From: Pseudomonadota bacterium
GTDB lineage: Bacteria > Desulfobacterota > Anaeroferrophillalia > Anaeroferrophillales > Tharpellaceae
Length of the DNA stretch: 64,000 nucleotides
NCBI GenBank assembly: GCA_034659215.1
Contig: JAYEGS010000244.1
Span: 12,659-76,658 of the forward strand
Direction: 5' to 3'
Numbering within the stretch: position 1 is the first letter of the stretch; every line of letters begins with the position of its first letter. The notes below the pieces were generated by a model. It ran no database searches. It had not been told where the DNA came from and saw only the letters and a program-made list of their open reading frames with translations. Both the position numbers and the translations under genes were made by a program. Shown in pieces: positions 10,683-21,422 of this stretch.

Positions 10683-11576
10683 ATGAAAATTGGAGTAGTA
10701 GGAACTGCCGGCGGCTGGTCATCTGAACTTCTCGCCGATAGAGTCGCTGAAAAGACCGGCTCCCGTCTCCTGATCGAGATGGACAGAACCCGGCTCGATC
10801 TGCCGGCCGGAAAACTCTGGTTCAACGATGTTGACCTGACAACTCTCGATGCCCTGCTGATAAAAAAAATCGGGCAGCGTTACTCGCCTGATCTCCTGGA
10901 TCGCCTCGAAATGCTGCGGATCTTGTCTAAAAAAGATGTTTTAATCTGTTCCGACCCGCTTAAAATCCTGCGCGTTCTGGATCGTTTAAGCTGCACTGTA
11001 ACCCTGCAGGAGAACGAAATACCGATGCCGGAAACTTCGATCACGGAAAATGTTGAACTTGCCGCCGCCATAATCCGGGATTATGGCGAAGCCGTACTGA
11101 AACCCCTCTACTCAACCAAGGCAAGAGGCATGACGATAGTAAGCGACGGCCCAGACCTTATTAAAGTGCTGGAAAATTACAAAAAAGAGAATACGATTAT
11201 CTATATTCAGAAAAAGATCGACCTGGGCGAGTTTGACCTGGGGCTGGTTTTTCTGGGCGGCAAATATCTGACCACCTATGCCCGCTGCCGCCAGGATAAA
11301 ACGGCATGGAACACAACCACAGCGGCCGGCGGTAAATACGCCGCCATTGATCCCGAACCGGAAGTTATTGAGCTTGCCCGCCAGGCTCAGGCACCCTTCG
11401 GACTCGATTTCACCTGTGTCGATGTTGCTCTGACAGATGCGGGGCCGGTAGTTTTTGAAGTTTCTGCTTTTGGTGGTTTTCGCGGCATCCTTGAAGCTCG
11501 AGGTCTGGATGCTGCTGCTCTTTTAACTGACTATGTAATTGAAAAAGTGGACAACCATAATGACACAAACAGCTAA
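10683..11576 (+). CDS. ATP-grasp enzyme (RimK/GshB-like), GAK-system type
   Basis: ATP-grasp fold motifs (LKPLYSTKARGM, IYIQKKIDLGEFDLGLVFLGGKY, ...FEVSAFGGF). Preferred start is the ATG at 10683 with GAGGA 8 nt upstream. The ORF-track TTG is at 10668. Confidence 0.7.
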   Translation: MKIGVVGTAGGWSSELLADRVAEKTGSRLLIEMDRTRLDLPAGKLWFNDVDLTTLDALLIKKIGQRYSPDLLDRLEMLRILSKKDVLICSDPLKILRVLDRLSCTVTLQENEIPMPETSITENVELAAAIIRDYGEAVLKPLYSTKARGMTIVSDGPDLIKVLENYKKENTIIYIQKKIDLGEFDLGLVFLGGKYLTTYARCRQDKTAWNTTTAAGGKYAAIDPEPEVIELARQAQAPFGLDFTCVDVALTDAGPVVFEVSAFGGFRGILEARGLDAAALLTDYVIEKVDNHNDTNS

Positions 11577-12651
11577 AAGTCTGAATCAACTGGCAGAAGA
11601 GTTTTTAAGTGGCGTTAGTCTTACGCAAACGCTATCTTTAAAATTTGAAGATTATCTCATCGGCATCCAGAGCAACTCTCACTCTTTGATTGAAAATTTG
11701 CGGCACTATTTCGCAGACTTTGTGGTTGAGGGTAGTGCGCCTGCACTTCTGGTGACAGCTATCGAGATGGAGCAACCTAAGTTTGACCTCCACTTTGAGA
11801 TCAAGGTTCCGGACCCCGGAAAAACTAAAATCAAGGAAGAATTTGTTAATATCGAAGGCGGCAGGATAGTCAGGAAACGCTTGACCGGCATGAGCTTTCT
11901 CTTCGGTGGCTCTATAAACCTGGCGCTTGGTCCATGCCGGGCAAACTCAAACCAGGTAATAAACTTTATCAACAACCGGTTTATCTCCTACAAACTTAAT
12001 CAGGGCTGCCTCCTCGGTCATGCTGCCGCTGTAACTGCAAACGGCAGAGGTCTGGCGCTGGCAGGATTTTCCGGGATGGGAAAATCAACCCTGGCCCTGC
12101 ACCTGATGAGTCGCGGCGTGAAATTTGTCAGTAACGACCGGCTCCTGGTTGACGCTGAGAGAAAAGATGAATTGAAAATGTACGGGGTTGCCAAGCTGCC
12201 GCGGATTAATCCGGGAACCGCTCTCAACAACCCCGACCTCGTCAAAGTTCTACCGGTCGATGACTACAAACGTTTCTCTCTGATTGAACAGGATGAGCTC
12301 TGGCAGGTCGAGCATAAATACGATGTTTTCATCGACGACTGCTTCGGCCCCGATCGTTTTCAGATTAAAGCTCAAATGAGCGCTCTGGTAATCCTTAACT
12401 GGCAACATAACGCTCCTGAAACCTTAATCAAACAAGCTGATCTCTCCCGACGACTGCAGATCCTGCCGGCTTTCATGAAGACCGCCGGCCTCTTTTATCT
12501 CGATGAGAGCAACCGAAACGAAGAGATGGAGAGGGTTGATTTTTACCAGGAACAACTCTCCTTATGCCCGATATATGAATTGAGTGGTAAAATTGATTTC
12601 AGCAAGGCGGCTGATTTGTGCATCTCATTATTAGAAGAGACGGAGCTATAG
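11539..12651 (+). CDS. HprK-related P-loop kinase
   Basis: LAGFSGMGKSTLALHLMSRGVKFVSNDRLLVD matches the HPr kinase/phosphorylase C-terminal P-loop pattern G-x-SG-x-GKS...DD. It overlaps the ATP-grasp gene end, consistent with translational coupling. Confidence 0.65.
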   Translation: MKKWTTIMTQTAKSLNQLAEEFLSGVSLTQTLSLKFEDYLIGIQSNSHSLIENLRHYFADFVVEGSAPALLVTAIEMEQPKFDLHFEIKVPDPGKTKIKEEFVNIEGGRIVRKRLTGMSFLFGGSINLALGPCRANSNQVINFINNRFISYKLNQGCLLGHAAAVTANGRGLALAGFSGMGKSTLALHLMSRGVKFVSNDRLLVDAERKDELKMYGVAKLPRINPGTALNNPDLVKVLPVDDYKRFSLIEQDELWQVEHKYDVFIDDCFGPDRFQIKAQMSALVILNWQHNAPETLIKQADLSRRLQILPAFMKTAGLFYLDESNRNEEMERVDFYQEQLSLCPIYELSGKIDFSKAADLCISLLEETEL

Positions 12652-12652
12652 T

Positions 12653-12910
12653 ATGTCTGAAAAAAAAGTGGACTTTACAACAAAGGGTGAAAACCAGGAG
12701 GTGGTTAACTATCTCTCCTCTCTGATTCAGGGTTTTGAAAAAAAGCGTCTTATCCTGACTCATGCCGATGATGAAGTTGTCCTCTACCCCGATGACGAAA
12801 TCACTTTCAAAGTCAAAGCCCGTCTCAAAAAAGGTGAAGCCCGGGTGGAACTGAAACTCTCCTGGAAACAGGAGGCAGAATCTGGTAAAGAGATCTTAAT
12901 CAGCAATTGA
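12653..12910 (+). CDS. amphi-Trp-like small protein, paralog 2
   Basis: 85 aa, paralogous to 7362..7628. Starts 2 nt after the kinase stop. Confidence 0.5.
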   Translation: MSEKKVDFTTKGENQEVVNYLSSLIQGFEKKRLILTHADDEVVLYPDDEITFKVKARLKKGEARVELKLSWKQEAESGKEILISN

Positions 12911-12981
12911 GATCACAGTTATTAACTGGATGGATATTCTCCGACGCAACTACTACTGTCTGAAAGCTTAAAAATGTTCAA

Positions 12982-14208
12982 TTGAGAATGAAACACAAAC
13001 AGTCCGAACCTAACACAAAGATTCTTATCAACCGGGAATTTTCGATTCCCGACCCGGAAAAACTGGAACTCTACCGCTCCAACCCTTCTCTTGGCCCGCG
13101 AATTCTTTTTTTCAGCGGGGGCTCGGCAATCCGCCAGCTCAGCACCAGGCTTATCAACTACACCTGGAACTCAATCCATTTAATAACCCCTTTTGACTCA
13201 GGAGGCAGTTCTGCCGTTTTAAGAGAGGCTTTTCGCATGCCGGCAATCGGCGACATTCGCAATCGTCTTATGGCCCTGGCGGACCAGTCAGTACTCGGCA
13301 ACCCTGAAATTTTCCGGCTCTTTGCCTACCGTTTACCAACTGCCGCTTTAGAAGATGATCTTCTAAATGAGTTTACCAGCATTCTCGAAGGCCGGCATGA
13401 GTTGGTTGCTGCCGTCTCATCACCGATGCGTAAGATCATCAGGCATCATCTTAAACTTTTCTCTGAACTAAAGCCGGAAAAGTTCAATCTCGCCGGTGCC
13501 AACATCGGCAACCTGGTCCTGACAGCCGGCTACCTTGAGAACCGCCGTCATCTTGACCCAACCATTTATATTTATTCGAAATTAGCCGAAGTGCGGGGAG
13601 TTGTCAGACCGGTTGTCAGCGTAGACTGTCACCTCGGCGCTGAACTTAACAATGGAGCAAGGATTATCGGTCAGCACCTTATCACCCGACAGAACAGAGC
13701 TAAAGCAAAGCAGCGAATAGAGAAAATATTTTTACTTGAGGCTGGAAATCCGGTTTCAGACATCAGTGATGAAATCTCTATACGTCCCAAAGTTGCTGAA
13801 CTGATCAATAAAGCGTCCATTATCTGCTACCCGATGGGAAGCTTTTTCACCAGTCTGATTGCCAGCCTGCTGCCTTCGGGGATTGGTTCGGCGCTAGCGC
13901 GAAGCCGAGCGCCGAAAATATACATTCCCAATACGGGAGATGATCCGGAAAGCTTTGGTTTAGACTTGATGGATCAGATCGATACCCTTTTAAACTATCT
14001 GAAGAGAAACAATTCCACCCTAGATGATAAACAACTGCTTAATTTCGTTTTACTTGACAGCAACGAAAAAAATTATACCGGCAAGCTCAATCCGGCAGAT
14101 CTTGAAGAGCGCGGCATCAGAATCATCCGCCGCAATTTAATCTCTGCCGCAAGCAAGCCATTGATCGATGCCGACCTTCTAACTGAAACCCTCCTCTCCC
14201 TCAACTGA
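12982..14208 (+). CDS. CofD-like / UPF0052 (YvcK-like) family protein
   Basis: ILFFSGGSAIRQL...ITPFDSGGSSAVLRE...IGDIRNRL matches the CofD/YvcK N-terminal signature. Confidence 0.7.
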   Translation: MRMKHKQSEPNTKILINREFSIPDPEKLELYRSNPSLGPRILFFSGGSAIRQLSTRLINYTWNSIHLITPFDSGGSSAVLREAFRMPAIGDIRNRLMALADQSVLGNPEIFRLFAYRLPTAALEDDLLNEFTSILEGRHELVAAVSSPMRKIIRHHLKLFSELKPEKFNLAGANIGNLVLTAGYLENRRHLDPTIYIYSKLAEVRGVVRPVVSVDCHLGAELNNGARIIGQHLITRQNRAKAKQRIEKIFLLEAGNPVSDISDEISIRPKVAELINKASIICYPMGSFFTSLIASLLPSGIGSALARSRAPKIYIPNTGDDPESFGLDLMDQIDTLLNYLKRNNSTLDDKQLLNFVLLDSNEKNYTGKLNPADLEERGIRIIRRNLISAASKPLIDADLLTETLLSLN

Positions 14209-16459: not shown

Positions 16460-17266
16460 ATGCAGATATTCGTCAATGAACATAGTTGTCAAGTTGAGGC
16501 GGAAACCCGGCTGTATGAGCTCCGAGATCGTCAGAAGCCGAATGCTGACCTGTTGATTGTCAACGGTTATCCGGTTAGTGAGGATCAACAACTTAAAGGT
16601 GGCGACCGGGTGGTGCTGATTCGGCGTGGTAAACAGCCGACGAGCGCTGATCTTGAAGCCCTGATGAGGGCTCGTCATACACCGGGCGTGCATGAGAAAA
16701 TTAAAAATAGTTGCGTCGGGATCGCCGGCGTTGGTGGGTTAGGTTCCAGTATCGCAATAGCCTTGGTTCGGGTCGGGGTCGGCAAGCTGGTGGTTGCTGA
16801 TTTCGACCTGGTCGAGCCTTCCAACCTGAATCGGCAGCACTATTTTATCGATCAGATTGGGTTGCCGAAAGTGCTGGCCTTGCAGGAAAGTTTACAGCGG
16901 ATCAATCCCGGCGTGCAAGTTGAAACAATTCAAGAGAGAATTACTCCGAAAAATCTGCTCATCCATTTTTCCACAGTTGATGTGATGGTTGAAGCCTTTG
17001 ATGCAGCCGATCAAAAAACGATGCTGATCAGCCACTTTTTGCGTGATTGTCCGCAAATACCGTTAGTCGCAGCCTCGGGGATGGCCGGCTATGCTCCCTC
17101 TAACAGTATCACAACGCGCAAGGCGGCTAACAATCTCTACCTTTGTGGTGATGGTATCACCGCAGTACTGCCGGGGCAAGGTTTGATGGCACCCCGGGTC
17201 GGAATTGCGGCGCACCATCAGGCCAATGCGGTCTTAAGGTTACTGCTTGGCGAAGAGCCGGAATAA
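16460..17266 (+). CDS. thiF: ThiS-like ubiquitin-fold domain fused to ThiF/MoeB-type E1-like adenylyltransferase
   Basis: N-terminus MQIFVNEHSCQVE...GGDRVVLIRRG is a ThiS/MoaD-like beta-grasp. After it comes the ThiF nucleotide-binding motif GIAGVGGLGS...DFDLVEPSNLNRQ. Confidence 0.7.
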   Translation: MQIFVNEHSCQVEAETRLYELRDRQKPNADLLIVNGYPVSEDQQLKGGDRVVLIRRGKQPTSADLEALMRARHTPGVHEKIKNSCVGIAGVGGLGSSIAIALVRVGVGKLVVADFDLVEPSNLNRQHYFIDQIGLPKVLALQESLQRINPGVQVETIQERITPKNLLIHFSTVDVMVEAFDAADQKTMLISHFLRDCPQIPLVAASGMAGYAPSNSITTRKAANNLYLCGDGITAVLPGQGLMAPRVGIAAHHQANAVLRLLLGEEPE

Positions 17267-17280
17267 GGAATTAAAAATTT

Positions 17281-17481
17281 ATGGATTTATGTGTCAACGG
17301 TCAGAATAGAGAATTTCCCCAACCGCTCAATGTCGAGCAGTTGCTTGAACATCTGGAGCTGAAGCCGGAGCGGATTGTGGTTGAACTGAACCGGGAGATC
17401 TTGACTATCGACAGACATGCCGACATTCAGCTCCAGGATGGCGACACGCTGGAGCTGATCCAGTTTGTTGGCGGTGGTTAG
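17281..17481 (+). CDS. thiS: sulfur carrier protein ThiS
   Basis: 66 aa ending in GG, with a MoaD/ThiS-like sequence. Sits just upstream of thiG. Confidence 0.7.
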   Translation: MDLCVNGQNREFPQPLNVEQLLEHLELKPERIVVELNREILTIDRHADIQLQDGDTLELIQFVGGG

Positions 17482-17559
17482 CAACTTATTCTTGAACTTC
17501 TGCCAAAAAAACCGCAAAGTACACACTAACTTTAGTTTCTTAAATGGGATATTATTATC

Positions 17560-18333
17560 ATGGATAAATTAATAATCGCAGGACGTTCCTTCAACTCACG
17601 GTTGCTGGTCGGTACGGGCAAATTTGCCTCGAACCAGGCGATGGTCGCGGCCATGGAGAACTCCGGTTCTGAAATCGTTACGGTGGCTCTACGCCGGGTT
17701 GATATTGACAATCCTGCGGATTCGCTGCTCTCCCATATCGACCGAAACCGTTATCTGTTATTGCCGAATACCAGTGGGGCCCGCGATGCTGAAGAGGCGG
17801 TACGCTTGGCCCGGCTGGCTCGGGCGGCGGGCTGTGAACCCTGGATCAAGTTGGAAGTTACACCCGATCCTTACTACCTGCTCCCGGATCCGATTGAAAC
17901 CCTGAAAGCGGCGGAAATCATGGTTAAAGACGGTTTTATCGTGCTTCCCTACATGCCGGCGGATCCGGTTTTGGCCAAACATCTGGAAGAGGCTGGAGTC
18001 GCAACTTTGATGCCGCTTGGAGCGCCGATCGGCACCAATCGGGGGGTTCGCACTCGCGATCTCATTGCGATTATTATTGAGCAGGCGACGGTGCCGGTGG
18101 TTGTTGATGCCGGTCTCGGGGCACCCTCCCACGCAGCCGAAGCGATGGAGATGGGGGCGGATGCGGTTTTAGTAAATACCGCACTTGCTGATACTCCCGA
18201 TCCTGCGGCTATGGCCCGGGCTTTTTGCAAAGGGGTTGAAGCCGGACGTGAAGCCTATCTTGCCGGGCTCGGGCCGCAGCGCCAAAAAGCGGAAGCCTCC
18301 AGCCCTTTGACCGGTTTTTTAAGGAATAACTGA
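17560..18333 (+). CDS. thiG: thiazole synthase
   Basis: [22 protein letters not shown]...[13 protein letters not shown]... is a typical ThiG TIM-barrel sequence. Confidence 0.85.
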
Positions 18334-19457
18334 TGAATTTTTTGTCACAATTGCAACAATATCCACAAAGCCAATTGCGCGAGCAAATTCTCTCCACAAC
18401 CGCATCGCAAATTGACCAGGCCTTGCGGCGGCAACGTTTAAGTCTGGAGGATTTTGCCTGTCTGCTTTCACCGCAGGTCAACGATGATCAGCTTGAGCAG
18501 ATGGCAAATCTGGCGCATCGGATTACGAGCCAACGTTTTGGCCGGATTATCCAACTTTATGCACCACTTTATCTCTCTAACGAATGTTGCAACGGCTGTA
18601 AGTATTGCGGTTTTAACGCCGACAATGATCTACCCCGCAAAACCTTATCGCTAGATGAGATTGAAAAAGATGCGAAAGTCCTACGCAAACAGGGCTTTCG
18701 TCACCTTCTGCTCTTGACCGGAGAGGCGCCGAAAGTGGCCGGAGTTGACTTTCTGGAAGCAGCCGTTAAGCGGATTAAACCGCTTTGCGGATCAATTTCG
18801 ATCGAAGTTTTTCCCATGGATAGGGACGGCTACACGCGGATGGTGGCGGCCGGGGTCGATGGTTTGACCGTCTATCAGGAAACCTACGATGCCGAGCTTT
18901 ATCGTGAACTGCATCCCTATGGGCCGAAAAGCAATTACAACTTTCGTCTTCAGGCACCGGAAGCGGCAGGAGAAGCCGGATTGCGGCGGATTGGTGTCGG
19001 TGCGCTGCTCGGGTTGGGAGATTGTCTGGCCGATGTGTTTTACACTGGTTTGCATGCTCTCTATCTGGCCCGACGTTTCTGGCGCACCCAAGTTACGATC
19101 TCTTTTCCCCGGTTGCGTCCGGCGGAAGGAGGTTTTCAGCCGCGCAGTCTGGTTTCCGACCGGCAACTGACCCAATTTATTTGTGCTCTGCGGCTCCTGA
19201 TTCATGATGCCGGGCTGATTCTTTCAACCCGCGAAAGTGCTGCGTTACGTGATAACCTGCTGCCGCTGGGAATCACTCAGATGAGCGCCGGTTCCTGCAC
19301 CGCCCCCGGCGGTTATAGTGACGATAGTAATGAAGGCGAACAATTTTCGATCAGCGATCACCGAAGCCCGGCCGAGCTGGCCGAACTTCTCGCGGCTCGC
19401 GGCTATGAAGCGGTCTGGAAGGATTGGGATAACGCCTTCCTCGAACAAGCTTCTTAA
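18333..19457 (+). CDS. thiH: 2-iminoacetate synthase (radical SAM)
   Basis: CNGCKYCGF radical-SAM cysteine motif and ThiH-like length. Overlaps the thiG stop. Confidence 0.8.
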   Translation: MNFLSQLQQYPQSQLREQILSTTASQIDQALRRQRLSLEDFACLLSPQVNDDQLEQMANLAHRITSQRFGRIIQLYAPLYLSNECCNGCKYCGFNADNDLPRKTLSLDEIEKDAKVLRKQGFRHLLLLTGEAPKVAGVDFLEAAVKRIKPLCGSISIEVFPMDRDGYTRMVAAGVDGLTVYQETYDAELYRELHPYGPKSNYNFRLQAPEAAGEAGLRRIGVGALLGLGDCLADVFYTGLHALYLARRFWRTQVTISFPRLRPAEGGFQPRSLVSDRQLTQFICALRLLIHDAGLILSTRESAALRDNLLPLGITQMSAGSCTAPGGYSDDSNEGEQFSISDHRSPAELAELLAARGYEAVWKDWDNAFLEQAS

Positions 19458-19496
19458 AAGTCTTATTTACACGAAAAGTAAAAAGGAGATAACATC

Positions 19497-21422
19497 ATGG
19501 CCGTTGACCCGGGAATAAAAATTTTGCTGGTCGAAGATGCCGGTACGATGCGGAAGATGGAAGTTCGCATTTTGAATCAGTTGGGTTTTATTAATGTTGT
19601 CGAGGCTGTAGATGGAAAAAATGCGGTTGAAAAACTGGAGCAGGAGGCGGGGATTCAACTGGTTATCAGCGATTGGGCGATGCCCGAGATGGACGGTCAT
19701 GAACTGTTGTGTTGGATGCGGCAGCAGACGTCATTCAAAGATATTCCTTTTCTTATGGCCACCGGACACGGTGATAAGGCATACACTGCCCAGGCGCTGG
19801 AAAGCGGGGCTAACGGGGTAGTGCCCAAGCCTTTTAGTCCTGACGAATTGCGTACCCATATTGACAAGACGTTCGGTATCGAGGAAGAACCAGCCCCTAC
19901 GCTTGAAACTCGTCCGAAAATCAGTGCTGCCGGTAAAGTGCATCTGAAGATGGCCCATATTCAAATTACCGACCACCTTACACTCGGGGTTGCGCAACAC
20001 CTGATCAAAACGGGAAAGAGTTCGCCTGAGCATTTCGATCTTGAGACTTTGTGTATGCCGAGTTGGAATCCGGTTCAGGCCGCTCTCGAAAATGGCGAGG
20101 TTGACGGTGCCTTTATTCTGGCCCCTATGGCGATGGATCTTTTCAGCTATGGGGTGCCGATTCGCATGGTTTTACTGGCCCACCGCAACGGCAGTATTAT
20201 GGTGCGCAATAAAGCGATTAAATACAATAAACCCTACCAGCAGTTTTTCAAGCACAAAGCCTTTTTTATTCCCCATAAAATGTCGATTCACAATATGCTC
20301 AGCCATATGTATTTTACCCAAATGGGGTTGCGGCCCGGCGTCGCCGGGAATGAAGCGGTTAATGTGCTGTTTGATGTGGTGCCGCCGGTTCAGATGCCGA
20401 ATTTTCTGTCCGAGAGTCTGGATGCCAGCGGTTTTATGGTGGCTGAGCCGATCGGCTCTCGGGCCATTGCCGCAGGTATTGCCGAACGCCAGCTCCTTTC
20501 GAGCGAACTTTGGGACAACCATCCTTGCTGTGTGGCGGTTTTTCGCCAAGAGTTCATTGATGAGTATGGGCACGCGGTGCAGGAATGTGTCAACCTGCTG
20601 GTCGAGTCCGGTAAATTTATCCGGGACAACGTGGATACAGCGGCGCAGATTGCGGTCGGTTTTCTCGATCCCAAGAAAGAGCTTGGGCTTAAAGAGGCGG
20701 TTCTTAAAAACGTACTTTCCGATCCCAAAGGGATCAAGACCGACAATCTCTATCCCGTCATCGAGGAACTTAATACTATTCAGGAGTACATGACCTCTAA
20801 AATGGGGGTCGGACGAATTATTGATCTGCATAAATTTGTCGACATGAGATTTGCCGATATTGCTTGCAAAGATGATCTTAAGGGCCGGGCTGCGGGGGAA
20901 GGCGCGAGTGTCGGGGCTCAGCGTTTGCCTGCATTTGAGTCCGGTGGCGCCAAAAAAGTTCGCGAAGGGAAATATCTGACTTTCGATCTCGGGGATGAGT
21001 GTTACGGCATTAATATTATGGATATTCGGGAGATTGTCGGGTTGCTGCCGATTACGCAACTGCCGCAAATGCCTGCCGCCTTTATGGGGGTGGTTAAACT
21101 TCGAGATAAAGTTATTCCGGTGATGGACATGCGGAAAAAGTTCGGTTTGGAAGAGACGGACTACCACGCCCGTACCTGCATCGTCATCATTGAGGTGTCC
21201 GGTCTTTCCGGTTCAACCCTTATGGGCGGCATCGTTGATTCCGTCTCTGAAGTGCGTCAGATTATGGATAAGGATATTGAAGATCCTCCCAAAATTGGCA
21301 CTAGTCGTGAAGGCGGGTTTATTCTCGGTATAGCTAAAACGGGAAAAAAAGTGACTATTCTCTTAGAGATCGACCGGATTCTACACGCCCAGGAGGTTGT
21401 CCAACTCGCCCAGGCGGGGTGA
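19497..21422 (+). CDS. response-regulator receiver - NMT1/ThiY/SsuA-like binding-protein-fold domain - CheW domain fusion
   Basis: REC domain: ILLVEDAGTMR...VISDWAMPEMDG...KPF. The middle ~330 aa resemble NitT/TauT-THI5 periplasmic-binding-like proteins. C-terminal CheW: KYLTFDLGDECYGINIMDIREIV...VIPVMDMRKKFG. Confidence 0.65.
   Translation: MAVDPGIKILLVEDAGTMRKMEVRILNQLGFINVVEAVDGKNAVEKLEQEAGIQLVISDWAMPEMDGHELLCWMRQQTSFKDIPFLMATGHGDKAYTAQALESGANGVVPKPFSPDELRTHIDKTFGIEEEPAPTLETRPKISAAGKVHLKMAHIQITDHLTLGVAQHLIKTGKSSPEHFDLETLCMPSWNPVQAALENGEVDGAFILAPMAMDLFSYGVPIRMVLLAHRNGSIMVRNKAIKYNKPYQQFFKHKAFFIPHKMSIHNMLSHMYFTQMGLRPGVAGNEAVNVLFDVVPPVQMPNFLSESLDASGFMVAEPIGSRAIAAGIAERQLLSSELWDNHPCCVAVFRQEFIDEYGHAVQECVNLLVESGKFIRDNVDTAAQIAVGFLDPKKELGLKEAVLKNVLSDPKGIKTDNLYPVIEELNTIQEYMTSKMGVGRIIDLHKFVDMRFADIACKDDLKGRAAGEGASVGAQRLPAFESGGAKKVREGKYLTFDLGDECYGINIMDIREIVGLLPITQLPQMPAAFMGVVKLRDKVIPVMDMRKKFGLEETDYHARTCIVIIEVSGLSGSTLMGGIVDSVSEVRQIMDKDIEDPPKIGTSREGGFILGIAKTGKKVTILLEIDRILHAQEVVQLAQAG

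Follow-up and report, generated by a model that had tools for sequence, protein, structure and literature searches.

The open reading frame (ORF) at positions 19497-21422 (+) of a 64,000-nucleotide stretch of Desulfobacterota DNA (GenBank assembly GCA_034659215.1, contig JAYEGS010000244.1; hereafter the window) is a real gene. It encodes a conserved bacterial signalling protein that combines a switch operated by phosphorylation, a module for binding small molecules, and a domain for docking to the chemotaxis machinery. It runs from an ATG at 19497 to a TGA ending at 21422, and its 641-aa product carries, in this order, a CheY-like receiver (REC), a solute-binding-protein fold of the NMT1_2 family, and a CheW domain. 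The family to which it belongs is a widespread and conserved sensory cassette with an unusual Cys-lined pocket. Our leading interpretation, to which we give an even chance of being right, is that the protein is cytoplasmic and CheV-like and serves a chemosensory array as an auxiliary component with a ligand-binding module of its own. The gene lies directly behind thiamine (vitamin B1) biosynthesis genes, a position that is a recent local accident without functional link.

An earlier note, made from the sequence alone, had proposed a REC - binding fold - CheW architecture, and domain searches bear it out. Pfam places Response_reg at residues 9-122 (E 1.8e-25), NMT1_2 (PF13379) at residues 145-386 (E 2.2e-28; 100.2 bits against a cut-off of 24.7), and CheW (PF01584) at residues 492-632 (E 1e-34; 119.6 bits against 23.5, with 137/138 model positions covered), so that all three domains score far above their thresholds. 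More than 1000 database proteins match the full-length query at E <= 1e-10, with the same three domains in nearly all of the best 120 listed. The architecture also recurs in 70 of 80 orthologous genome loci, each inspected with up to 10 kb of flank; hence, it is not an assembly artefact. Homologues carry generic public names such as 'chemotaxis protein CheW' or 'response regulator receiver modulated CheW protein'. The architecture is thus already annotated automatically in databases and, as kin to CheV-type coupling proteins and cytoplasmic binding-fold sensors, is not categorically new. A scan of one genome per species returned 158 relatives, almost all from metagenome-assembled genomes (MAGs) and isolates of Thermodesulfobacteriota, including Desulfurivibrio, Desulfobacterium sp. 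N47, Hydrosulfovibrio, and Smithella/Syntrophaceae.

The N-terminal domain is a CheY-type receiver that keeps all phospho-acceptor residues. The acceptor context recognized in the earlier note, VISDWAMPEMDG, occupies residues 56-67 and contains the acceptor D59. Together with E13, D14, T89, and K111, this residue corresponds to CheY D12/D13/D57/T87/K109, and all five are invariant among the 30 aligned homologues on which the conservation values given here are based. At the other end of the protein, the domain aligns end to end with residues 18-160 of E. coli CheW. Residues I507, I510, E512, I513, G531, and R536 fall on E. coli I33, V36, E38, I39, G57, and R62, which serve in receptor and CheA binding, and E512, G531, and R536 are invariant. 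The C-terminal domain is therefore a canonical CheW domain and keeps the residues with which E. coli CheW contacts CheA and receptors.

A canonical CheW domain and a CheY-like receiver with an intact set of phospho-acceptor residues are also the components of CheV, and array docking and phosphorylation by CheA would be expected on this ground. The domain order is the reverse of CheV, in which CheW precedes REC, and a putative ligand-binding module is inserted, both as the earlier note had it. This binding fold of roughly 310 residues separates REC from CheW. In addition, the receiver is rigidly linked to the binding fold and not to CheW, and the gene lies outside che operons. The linkers show this arrangement: the receiver is coupled rigidly to the pocket domain by a first linker of fixed length, whereas CheW sits on a flexible tether, a second linker that spans 30-54 residues across homologues with an identity of only 0.20. 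Conservation is highest in the middle domain (mean pairwise identity 0.69, compared with 0.64 for REC and 0.59 for CheW).

The receiver and the binding fold, joined by the fixed-length linker, form a portable cassette that recurs alongside many signalling partners (Table 1). An exhaustive search with the middle domain retrieved 660 clusters at E <= 0.001 and 88 at E <= 1e-30. In the three proteins that join the cassette to a CheA core, it stands in place of the N-terminal P1/P2 region, and an Hpt domain was not detected; their genes adjoin PAS histidine kinases, not che genes. Fusion to nitrite/sulfite-reductase ferredoxin-like domains in a further member may be a hint at the chemistry of the sensed solute. 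In one membrane-bound methyl-accepting chemotaxis protein (MCP), an NMT1_2 fold belonging to the same subfamily occurs without the receiver at the cytoplasmic C-terminus. The neighbours of this MCP gene encode a 531-aa NMT1_2 protein (L085:8243-9838) and a PAS-SpoIIE phosphatase. Three Desulfobacteraceae loci (L076, L078, and L079) hold a CheW-less cassette as the fourth gene of an operon, after an ATP-binding cassette (ABC) ATPase, a paralogous NMT1_2 binding protein, and a permease; a conserved protein of 200-240 aa without a Pfam match comes next. A similar NitT/TauT transporter lies 6-8 kb from the orthologous gene in Desulfurivibrio loci.

A sensor attached to a CheW scaffold is plausible as a general idea, and the range of partners (CheA core, SpoIIE/PP2C, STAS, hybrid kinases, and NIR_SIR domains, with the binding fold itself placed on an MCP) is the pattern expected of a sensory module. 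There is a precedent in the regulatory domain of CmpC, a cytoplasmic domain with a binding-protein fold that senses an intracellular anion (PMC13287603). Under our leading interpretation, the CheW domain would dock the protein to CheA and receptor arrays, and CheA would phosphorylate D59, as in CheV. The binding domain would report how much of a small solute is present in the cytoplasm, with a Cys/His-bound metal as the probable site that holds it. This solute may be the one imported by related extracytoplasmic binding proteins, which would parallel the pair formed by NrtA and the NrtC regulatory domain. The cassette would integrate ligand occupancy with phosphorylation, and the output could be an altered phosphate flow from CheA, with the protein serving as a ligand-gated phosphate sink, and/or a change in coupling strength.

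The distribution of the cassette also bears on the most serious competitor, an output role, which we consider unlikely. Here, the binding fold would be the effector of a response-regulator cassette, for example by gating an ABC transporter, and CheW would only tether it to CheA, so that the array controls uptake or handling of the solute. Stand-alone REC-binding-fold proteins are indeed encoded within ABC transporter operons, and the regulatory domain of CmpC works by binding transporter nucleotide-binding domains. The contrast between a fixed REC-binding-fold linker and a flexible, variable CheW linker fits such a role as well, as does the position of the cassette at the usual P1/P2 site of CheA-type proteins without a detected Hpt domain. 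However, the cassette also stands ahead of PP2C phosphatases and STAS domains, an input role is the simplest reading for the fold that one MCP carries at its C-terminus, and most orthologous loci have no adjacent transporter. Because of this breadth of signalling partners, PP2C and STAS among them, and the MCP bearing the fold, the sensor reading is favoured over the output role.

The fold of the middle domain and its place in the superfamily are well defined. An AlphaFold 2 model of this domain alone is a confident two-lobed binding-protein fold (predicted local distance difference test score 87; predicted template-modelling score, pTM, 0.86), and Foldseek gives template-modelling (TM) scores of 0.6-0.9 to 3un6, NrtA, CmpA, TauA, and SsuA. 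The best match is Staphylococcus aureus 3UN6 (E 1.5e-22; target-normalised TM-score 0.89), followed by the cytoplasmic regulatory domain of CmpC (9uak, 9uai; about 5e-19) and NrtA (2.7e-18), with TauA, CmpA, and SsuA behind them. Sequence searches agree with this ranking: 3UN6 is again the best match (E 1.4e-17), and the motifs IPH..S.H, VAEP.G, and CCV.V.R are common to both proteins. The domain search and structure prediction that the earlier note had called for thus return PF13379 and a binding-protein fold. Its resemblance to NMT1/THI5/ThiY/SsuA holds at the level of the type II periplasmic-binding-protein superfamily but not of the nearest branch, which is NMT1_2 of the NrtA/CmpA/TauA type. 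PF09084, the NMT1/THI5/ThiY model, has no match in the 641-aa product even at E <= 1. The sulfonate ligand suggested as an option in that note is favoured by none of the evidence tested, and SsuA_fam (TIGR01728) reaches 45.4 bits, well under its cut-off of 163.5.

The binding pocket of the domain is conserved and represents a new type of specificity. The pocket was mapped with HMMER alignments, and the numbering was checked against PMC13287603 (section 6) and PMC8786288; under a constant offset of 29, each of the five NrtA pocket residues meets a residue of the matching type, and the four CmpC residues do so directly. NrtA W102, Q155, H196, G240, and K269 correspond to W190, S233, H265, A316, and C345 of our protein, all of which are invariant in the family alignment. 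The equivalent residues of the CmpC regulatory domain are W319, H408, G452, and K481, with none listed opposite Q155. Where our protein reads HPCC, NrtA has 'HPEK' and CmpC 'HPGK'; D159, H160, and H342 are also invariant in the family. The Lys at NrtA K269/CmpC K481 sets nitrate specificity, and CmpA has a Glu at this position for bicarbonate (PMC13287603, PMC8786288). Specificity for nitrate or bicarbonate was considered for our protein and rejected, as the determinant residue is Cys345, neither the Lys of the nitrate proteins nor the Glu of CmpA.

Several known proteins place this pocket in context. The C-terminal regulatory domains of cyanobacterial CmpC and NrtC (PDB 9uak, 9uai, 8wm7) likewise use a cytoplasmic NrtA-like fold as an intracellular sensor and share the Trp, His, and Gly/Ala framework of the pocket. 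They are, however, fused to an ABC ATPase, bind nitrate through the Lys, and lock nucleotide-binding domains, whereas our protein has Cys345 and is partnered with REC and CheW. NasS is a leaderless, stand-alone cytoplasmic nitrate/nitrite sensor of the NrtA family that works with NasT to control an ANTAR antiterminator. Our protein shares with it the concept of a leaderless NrtA-family cytoplasmic sensor in signalling but lacks the nitrate-type Lys, and an ANTAR partner is not seen for it. The 3UN6-like NitT/TauT binding proteins, some of them encoded beside clade B Ni-containing carbon-monoxide dehydrogenase (CODH), share motifs and a proposed Cys/His metal site with the middle domain, although they are secreted or lipid-anchored transporter components and the domain studied here is internal to a cytoplasmic signalling protein. 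The signature D-H...W...S...S.H...AE...H.CC is common to REC-fused, leaderless stand-alone, and leader-bearing transporter members.

These comparisons suggest what the pocket may hold. S. aureus 3UN6 was crystallised with zinc, and its ligand is unknown. Work published in 2026 on the binding proteins that accompany clade B CODH noted their resemblance to 3UN6, stated that their ligand is unknown, and obtained an AlphaFold 3 prediction of a metal site formed by two Cys and one or two His (PMC13592312; see also PMC6344411). From residue identity and this literature, the middle-domain pocket probably carries a Cys/His-bound metal. An alternative is that the protein couples chemotaxis to a classical NitT/TauT oxyanion (nitrate, nitrite, bicarbonate, taurine, or an alkanesulfonate) through a cytoplasmic sensor. 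The closest characterised structures bind such ligands, W190, H265, and A316 (for Gly) preserve three of the four positions of the CmpC nitrate pocket, and one cassette is fused to a nitrite/sulfite-reductase domain. Against this, the specificity residue is Cys345, preceded by Cys344, the SsuA_fam score falls far below its cut-off, and the Cys/His/Asp-rich pocket is common with 3UN6, the zinc-crystallised protein. A classical oxyanion is consequently a quite improbable ligand.

Degenerate domains are frequent in multidomain signalling proteins, and no ligand is known for this one; the binding fold could then be a ligand-free spacer or dimerisation module, and the protein merely an unusual CheV or CheW. 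This reading is very unlikely, since the middle domain is better conserved than either of its partners and its invariant residues concentrate at the pocket positions defined by NrtA and CmpC.

Several observations weigh against the leading interpretation of an array-associated sensor. The window was searched with hidden Markov models (HMMs) and phmmer for CheW, the CheA core, REC, and the MCP tip, and no protein but this one matched. Within 10 kb of the orthologues, a CheA-like gene occurs in one of the 80 loci (L064) and an MCP gene in two (L041, L043), and the gene is an orphan relative to che operons. With no che genes near, array docking and phosphorylation by CheA are argued from domain homology only. 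The flexibility of the CheW linker argues against an allosteric control that the binding domain would exert directly on CheW, and a full-length AlphaFold model, with a poor lobe 2 and a pTM of 0.50, gives no confident inter-domain geometry. The metal centre is itself inferred, and 3UN6 differs at three signature positions, with H for D159, S for H160, and A for H342. Finally, no description of this architecture or experiment on it was found in the searchable literature, and a survey of CheW architectures, from which rare ones were excluded, omits it. The single locus with a CheA-like gene (L064:5101-7935, -) holds the most divergent orthologue (48% identity) and comes from a MAG labelled Gemmatimonadaceae.

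The thiamine genes upstream had suggested a different role. The identities that the earlier note gave to thiF, thiS, thiG, and thiH are correct, and so is the close adjacency, except that the gap after thiH is 39 nt rather than 40. The conservation of this adjacency across genomes was assessed with tblastn of all window neighbours against the 80 orthologous loci, together with blastn against L001 and L002. It is found in only two of the 80 loci, L001 (96% identity) and L032 (93%), and is not conserved beyond them, an outcome that the earlier note had itself named as refuting its proposal. In L002, whose orthologue is 88% identical and intact, the upstream shikimate kinase gene persists, but three fragments are what is left of the thi cluster after decay (Table 1): thiS and thiG have been deleted entirely, thiF for the most part, and thiH in parts. 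Between the shikimate kinase gene and the orthologue (L002:4143-5217), the surviving pieces are the 5' end of thiF, a thiH fragment of 318 nt, and the 3' end of thiH, and the locus is an instance of thiazole biosynthesis genes lost in the recent past. In the window, the N-terminal ThiS-like ubiquitin-fold domain of ThiF is PF14453, and the separate 66-aa thiS comes next (16460-17481). The adjacency is thus lineage-specific and dispensable, and a link to thiamine metabolism is rejected.

A thiC gene lies 2-4 kb from the orthologue in about 11-18 loci of the Desulfurivibrionaceae type, within a syntenic block ordered HhH-GPD, ThiC, MntP, rhodanese, orthologue, HDOD, and HtpG. As a functional connection it was judged coincidental, since the gene is on the opposite strand, the MntP and rhodanese genes intervene, and all cases belong to a single syntenic block. 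As each 20-kb neighbourhood has about 20 genes and the independent contexts are many, chance would be expected to supply one or two thi neighbours. A thiamine pyrophosphate (TPP) riboswitch was looked for in the window and ahead of the thi genes; neither it nor any other Rfam family was detected, whether at the gathering threshold or with E <= 1. ThiY (3ix1) and THI5/NMT1 (4h67, 4esx) have the type II fold in common with the middle domain, but they rank 19th and 21st or lower in Foldseek at 10-13% identity, with many structures ahead of them. Binding of a thiamine-pyrimidine precursor, whether hydroxymethylpyrimidine (HMP), its phosphate (HMP-P), or formylaminopyrimidine (FAMP), can accordingly be dismissed as highly improbable, despite the short gap after thiH, in which no terminator-like site was found, the shared superfamily, and the nearby thiC of one other lineage. 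This removes a thiamine-sensing lead that had rested on the gene order of one genome.

Other neighbours are equally local. Clustering of neighbour ORFs across the 80 loci yielded no conserved operon partner; neighbours are lineage-specific and mostly on the opposite strand (HDOD, rhodanese, HtpG). A convergent gene for an HDOD-domain protein lies immediately downstream of the orthologue in 22 Desulfurivibrionaceae-type loci (e.g., L021:11959-12849). HDOD proteins are poorly understood signalling components. In the window, an adenine deaminase gene converges on the gene from the downstream side. Farther upstream, positions 11539-14208 encode a weakly HPr-kinase C-terminal-like protein (under the Pfam cut-off), followed by a CofD-family (2-phospho-L-lactate transferase-like) protein.

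Table 1. Features of the gene and its surroundings in the window, and related proteins and loci elsewhere (positions without a locus prefix are those of the window)
Feature	Position	Strand	Evidence or remark
Whole ORF, REC - NMT1_2 binding fold - CheW	19497-21422	+	Pfam; M1 conserved in homologues
Shine-Dalgarno-like AAGGAGA	19483-19489	+	7 nt ahead of ATG; read directly in sequence
CheY-like receiver, residues 7-125	19515-19871	+	Pfam 1.8e-25; best NCBIfam model is CheY; best PDB sequence matches are CheY proteins
Acceptor Asp59 codon	19671-19673	+	Receiver domain
Linker 1, residues 126-146	19872-19934	+	21-22 residues in all 30 aligned homologues
Cytoplasmic solute-binding-protein fold, residues 147-455, NMT1_2 family, 3UN6-like subfamily	19935-20861	+	Pfam, AlphaFold 2, Foldseek
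HPCC motif, H342 P343 C344 C345, invariant	20520-20531	+	Alignments to NrtA/CmpC; homologue conservation
Linker 2, residues 456-489	20862-20963	+	Poorly conserved, low model confidence
CheW domain, residues 490-632	20964-21392	+	Pfam 1e-34; alignment with E. coli CheW
thiF-thiS-thiG-thiH cluster	16460-19457	+	Context only; adjacency limited to closest relatives
thiF with ThiS-like N-terminus	16460-17266	+	Upstream of the gene
thiS, 66 aa, ends in GG	17281-17481	+	Upstream of the gene
thiG	17560-18333	+	Upstream of the gene
thiH	18333-19457	+	Last gene before the ORF
Segment equivalent to L002 3557-4501	15724-16681		blastn
Segment equivalent to L002 4502-4819	18493-18810		blastn
Segment equivalent to L002 4812-7144	19071-21424		blastn
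REC-NMT1_2 cassette alone			About 460 aa
Cassette in tandem, without CheW, in one polypeptide	L080:7226-10861		P0007 (1068 aa); L080
Cassette with CheA core (H-kinase_dim, HATPase_c, CheW)	L084, L083, L082		P0125, P0131, P0132, respectively
Cassette with SpoIIE/PP2C			P0124, P0121
Cassette with HATPase_c_2 and STAS			P0153
Cassette behind hybrid histidine kinase			P0145
Cassette with NIR_SIR_ferr and NIR_SIR (nitrite/sulfite-reductase ferredoxin-like, 4Fe-4S)			P0144, 894 aa
Binding fold without receiver, cytoplasmic C-terminus of membrane MCP	L085:10001-12547		P0243
NitT/TauT ABC operons with REC-NMT1_2	L076:262-4003; L078:633-5774; L079:6907-11380

Chemotaxis arrays are thought to take in chemical information almost entirely via their receptors, the MCPs. 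If the leading interpretation is true, a coupling protein with its own ligand-binding domain would constitute a second signal entry point and link taxis with the pool of a transported solute inside the cell. In its most far-reaching form, which we regard as possible but on the doubtful side, the cassette would be a previously undescribed cytoplasmic sensory module of Desulfobacterota with a Cys/His metal centre, wired to chemoreceptor arrays through CheW. It would then support receptor-independent taxis to or from an imported metabolite that is shared with the 3UN6-like ABC transporters of clade B CODH enzymes. Recent work on clade B CODH operons asks which ligand the 3UN6-like proteins bind, and soluble cytoplasmic sensor versions of the fold may ease the search for it. 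If the cassette and the CODH-linked transporters share their solute, identification of this ligand would solve both puzzles.

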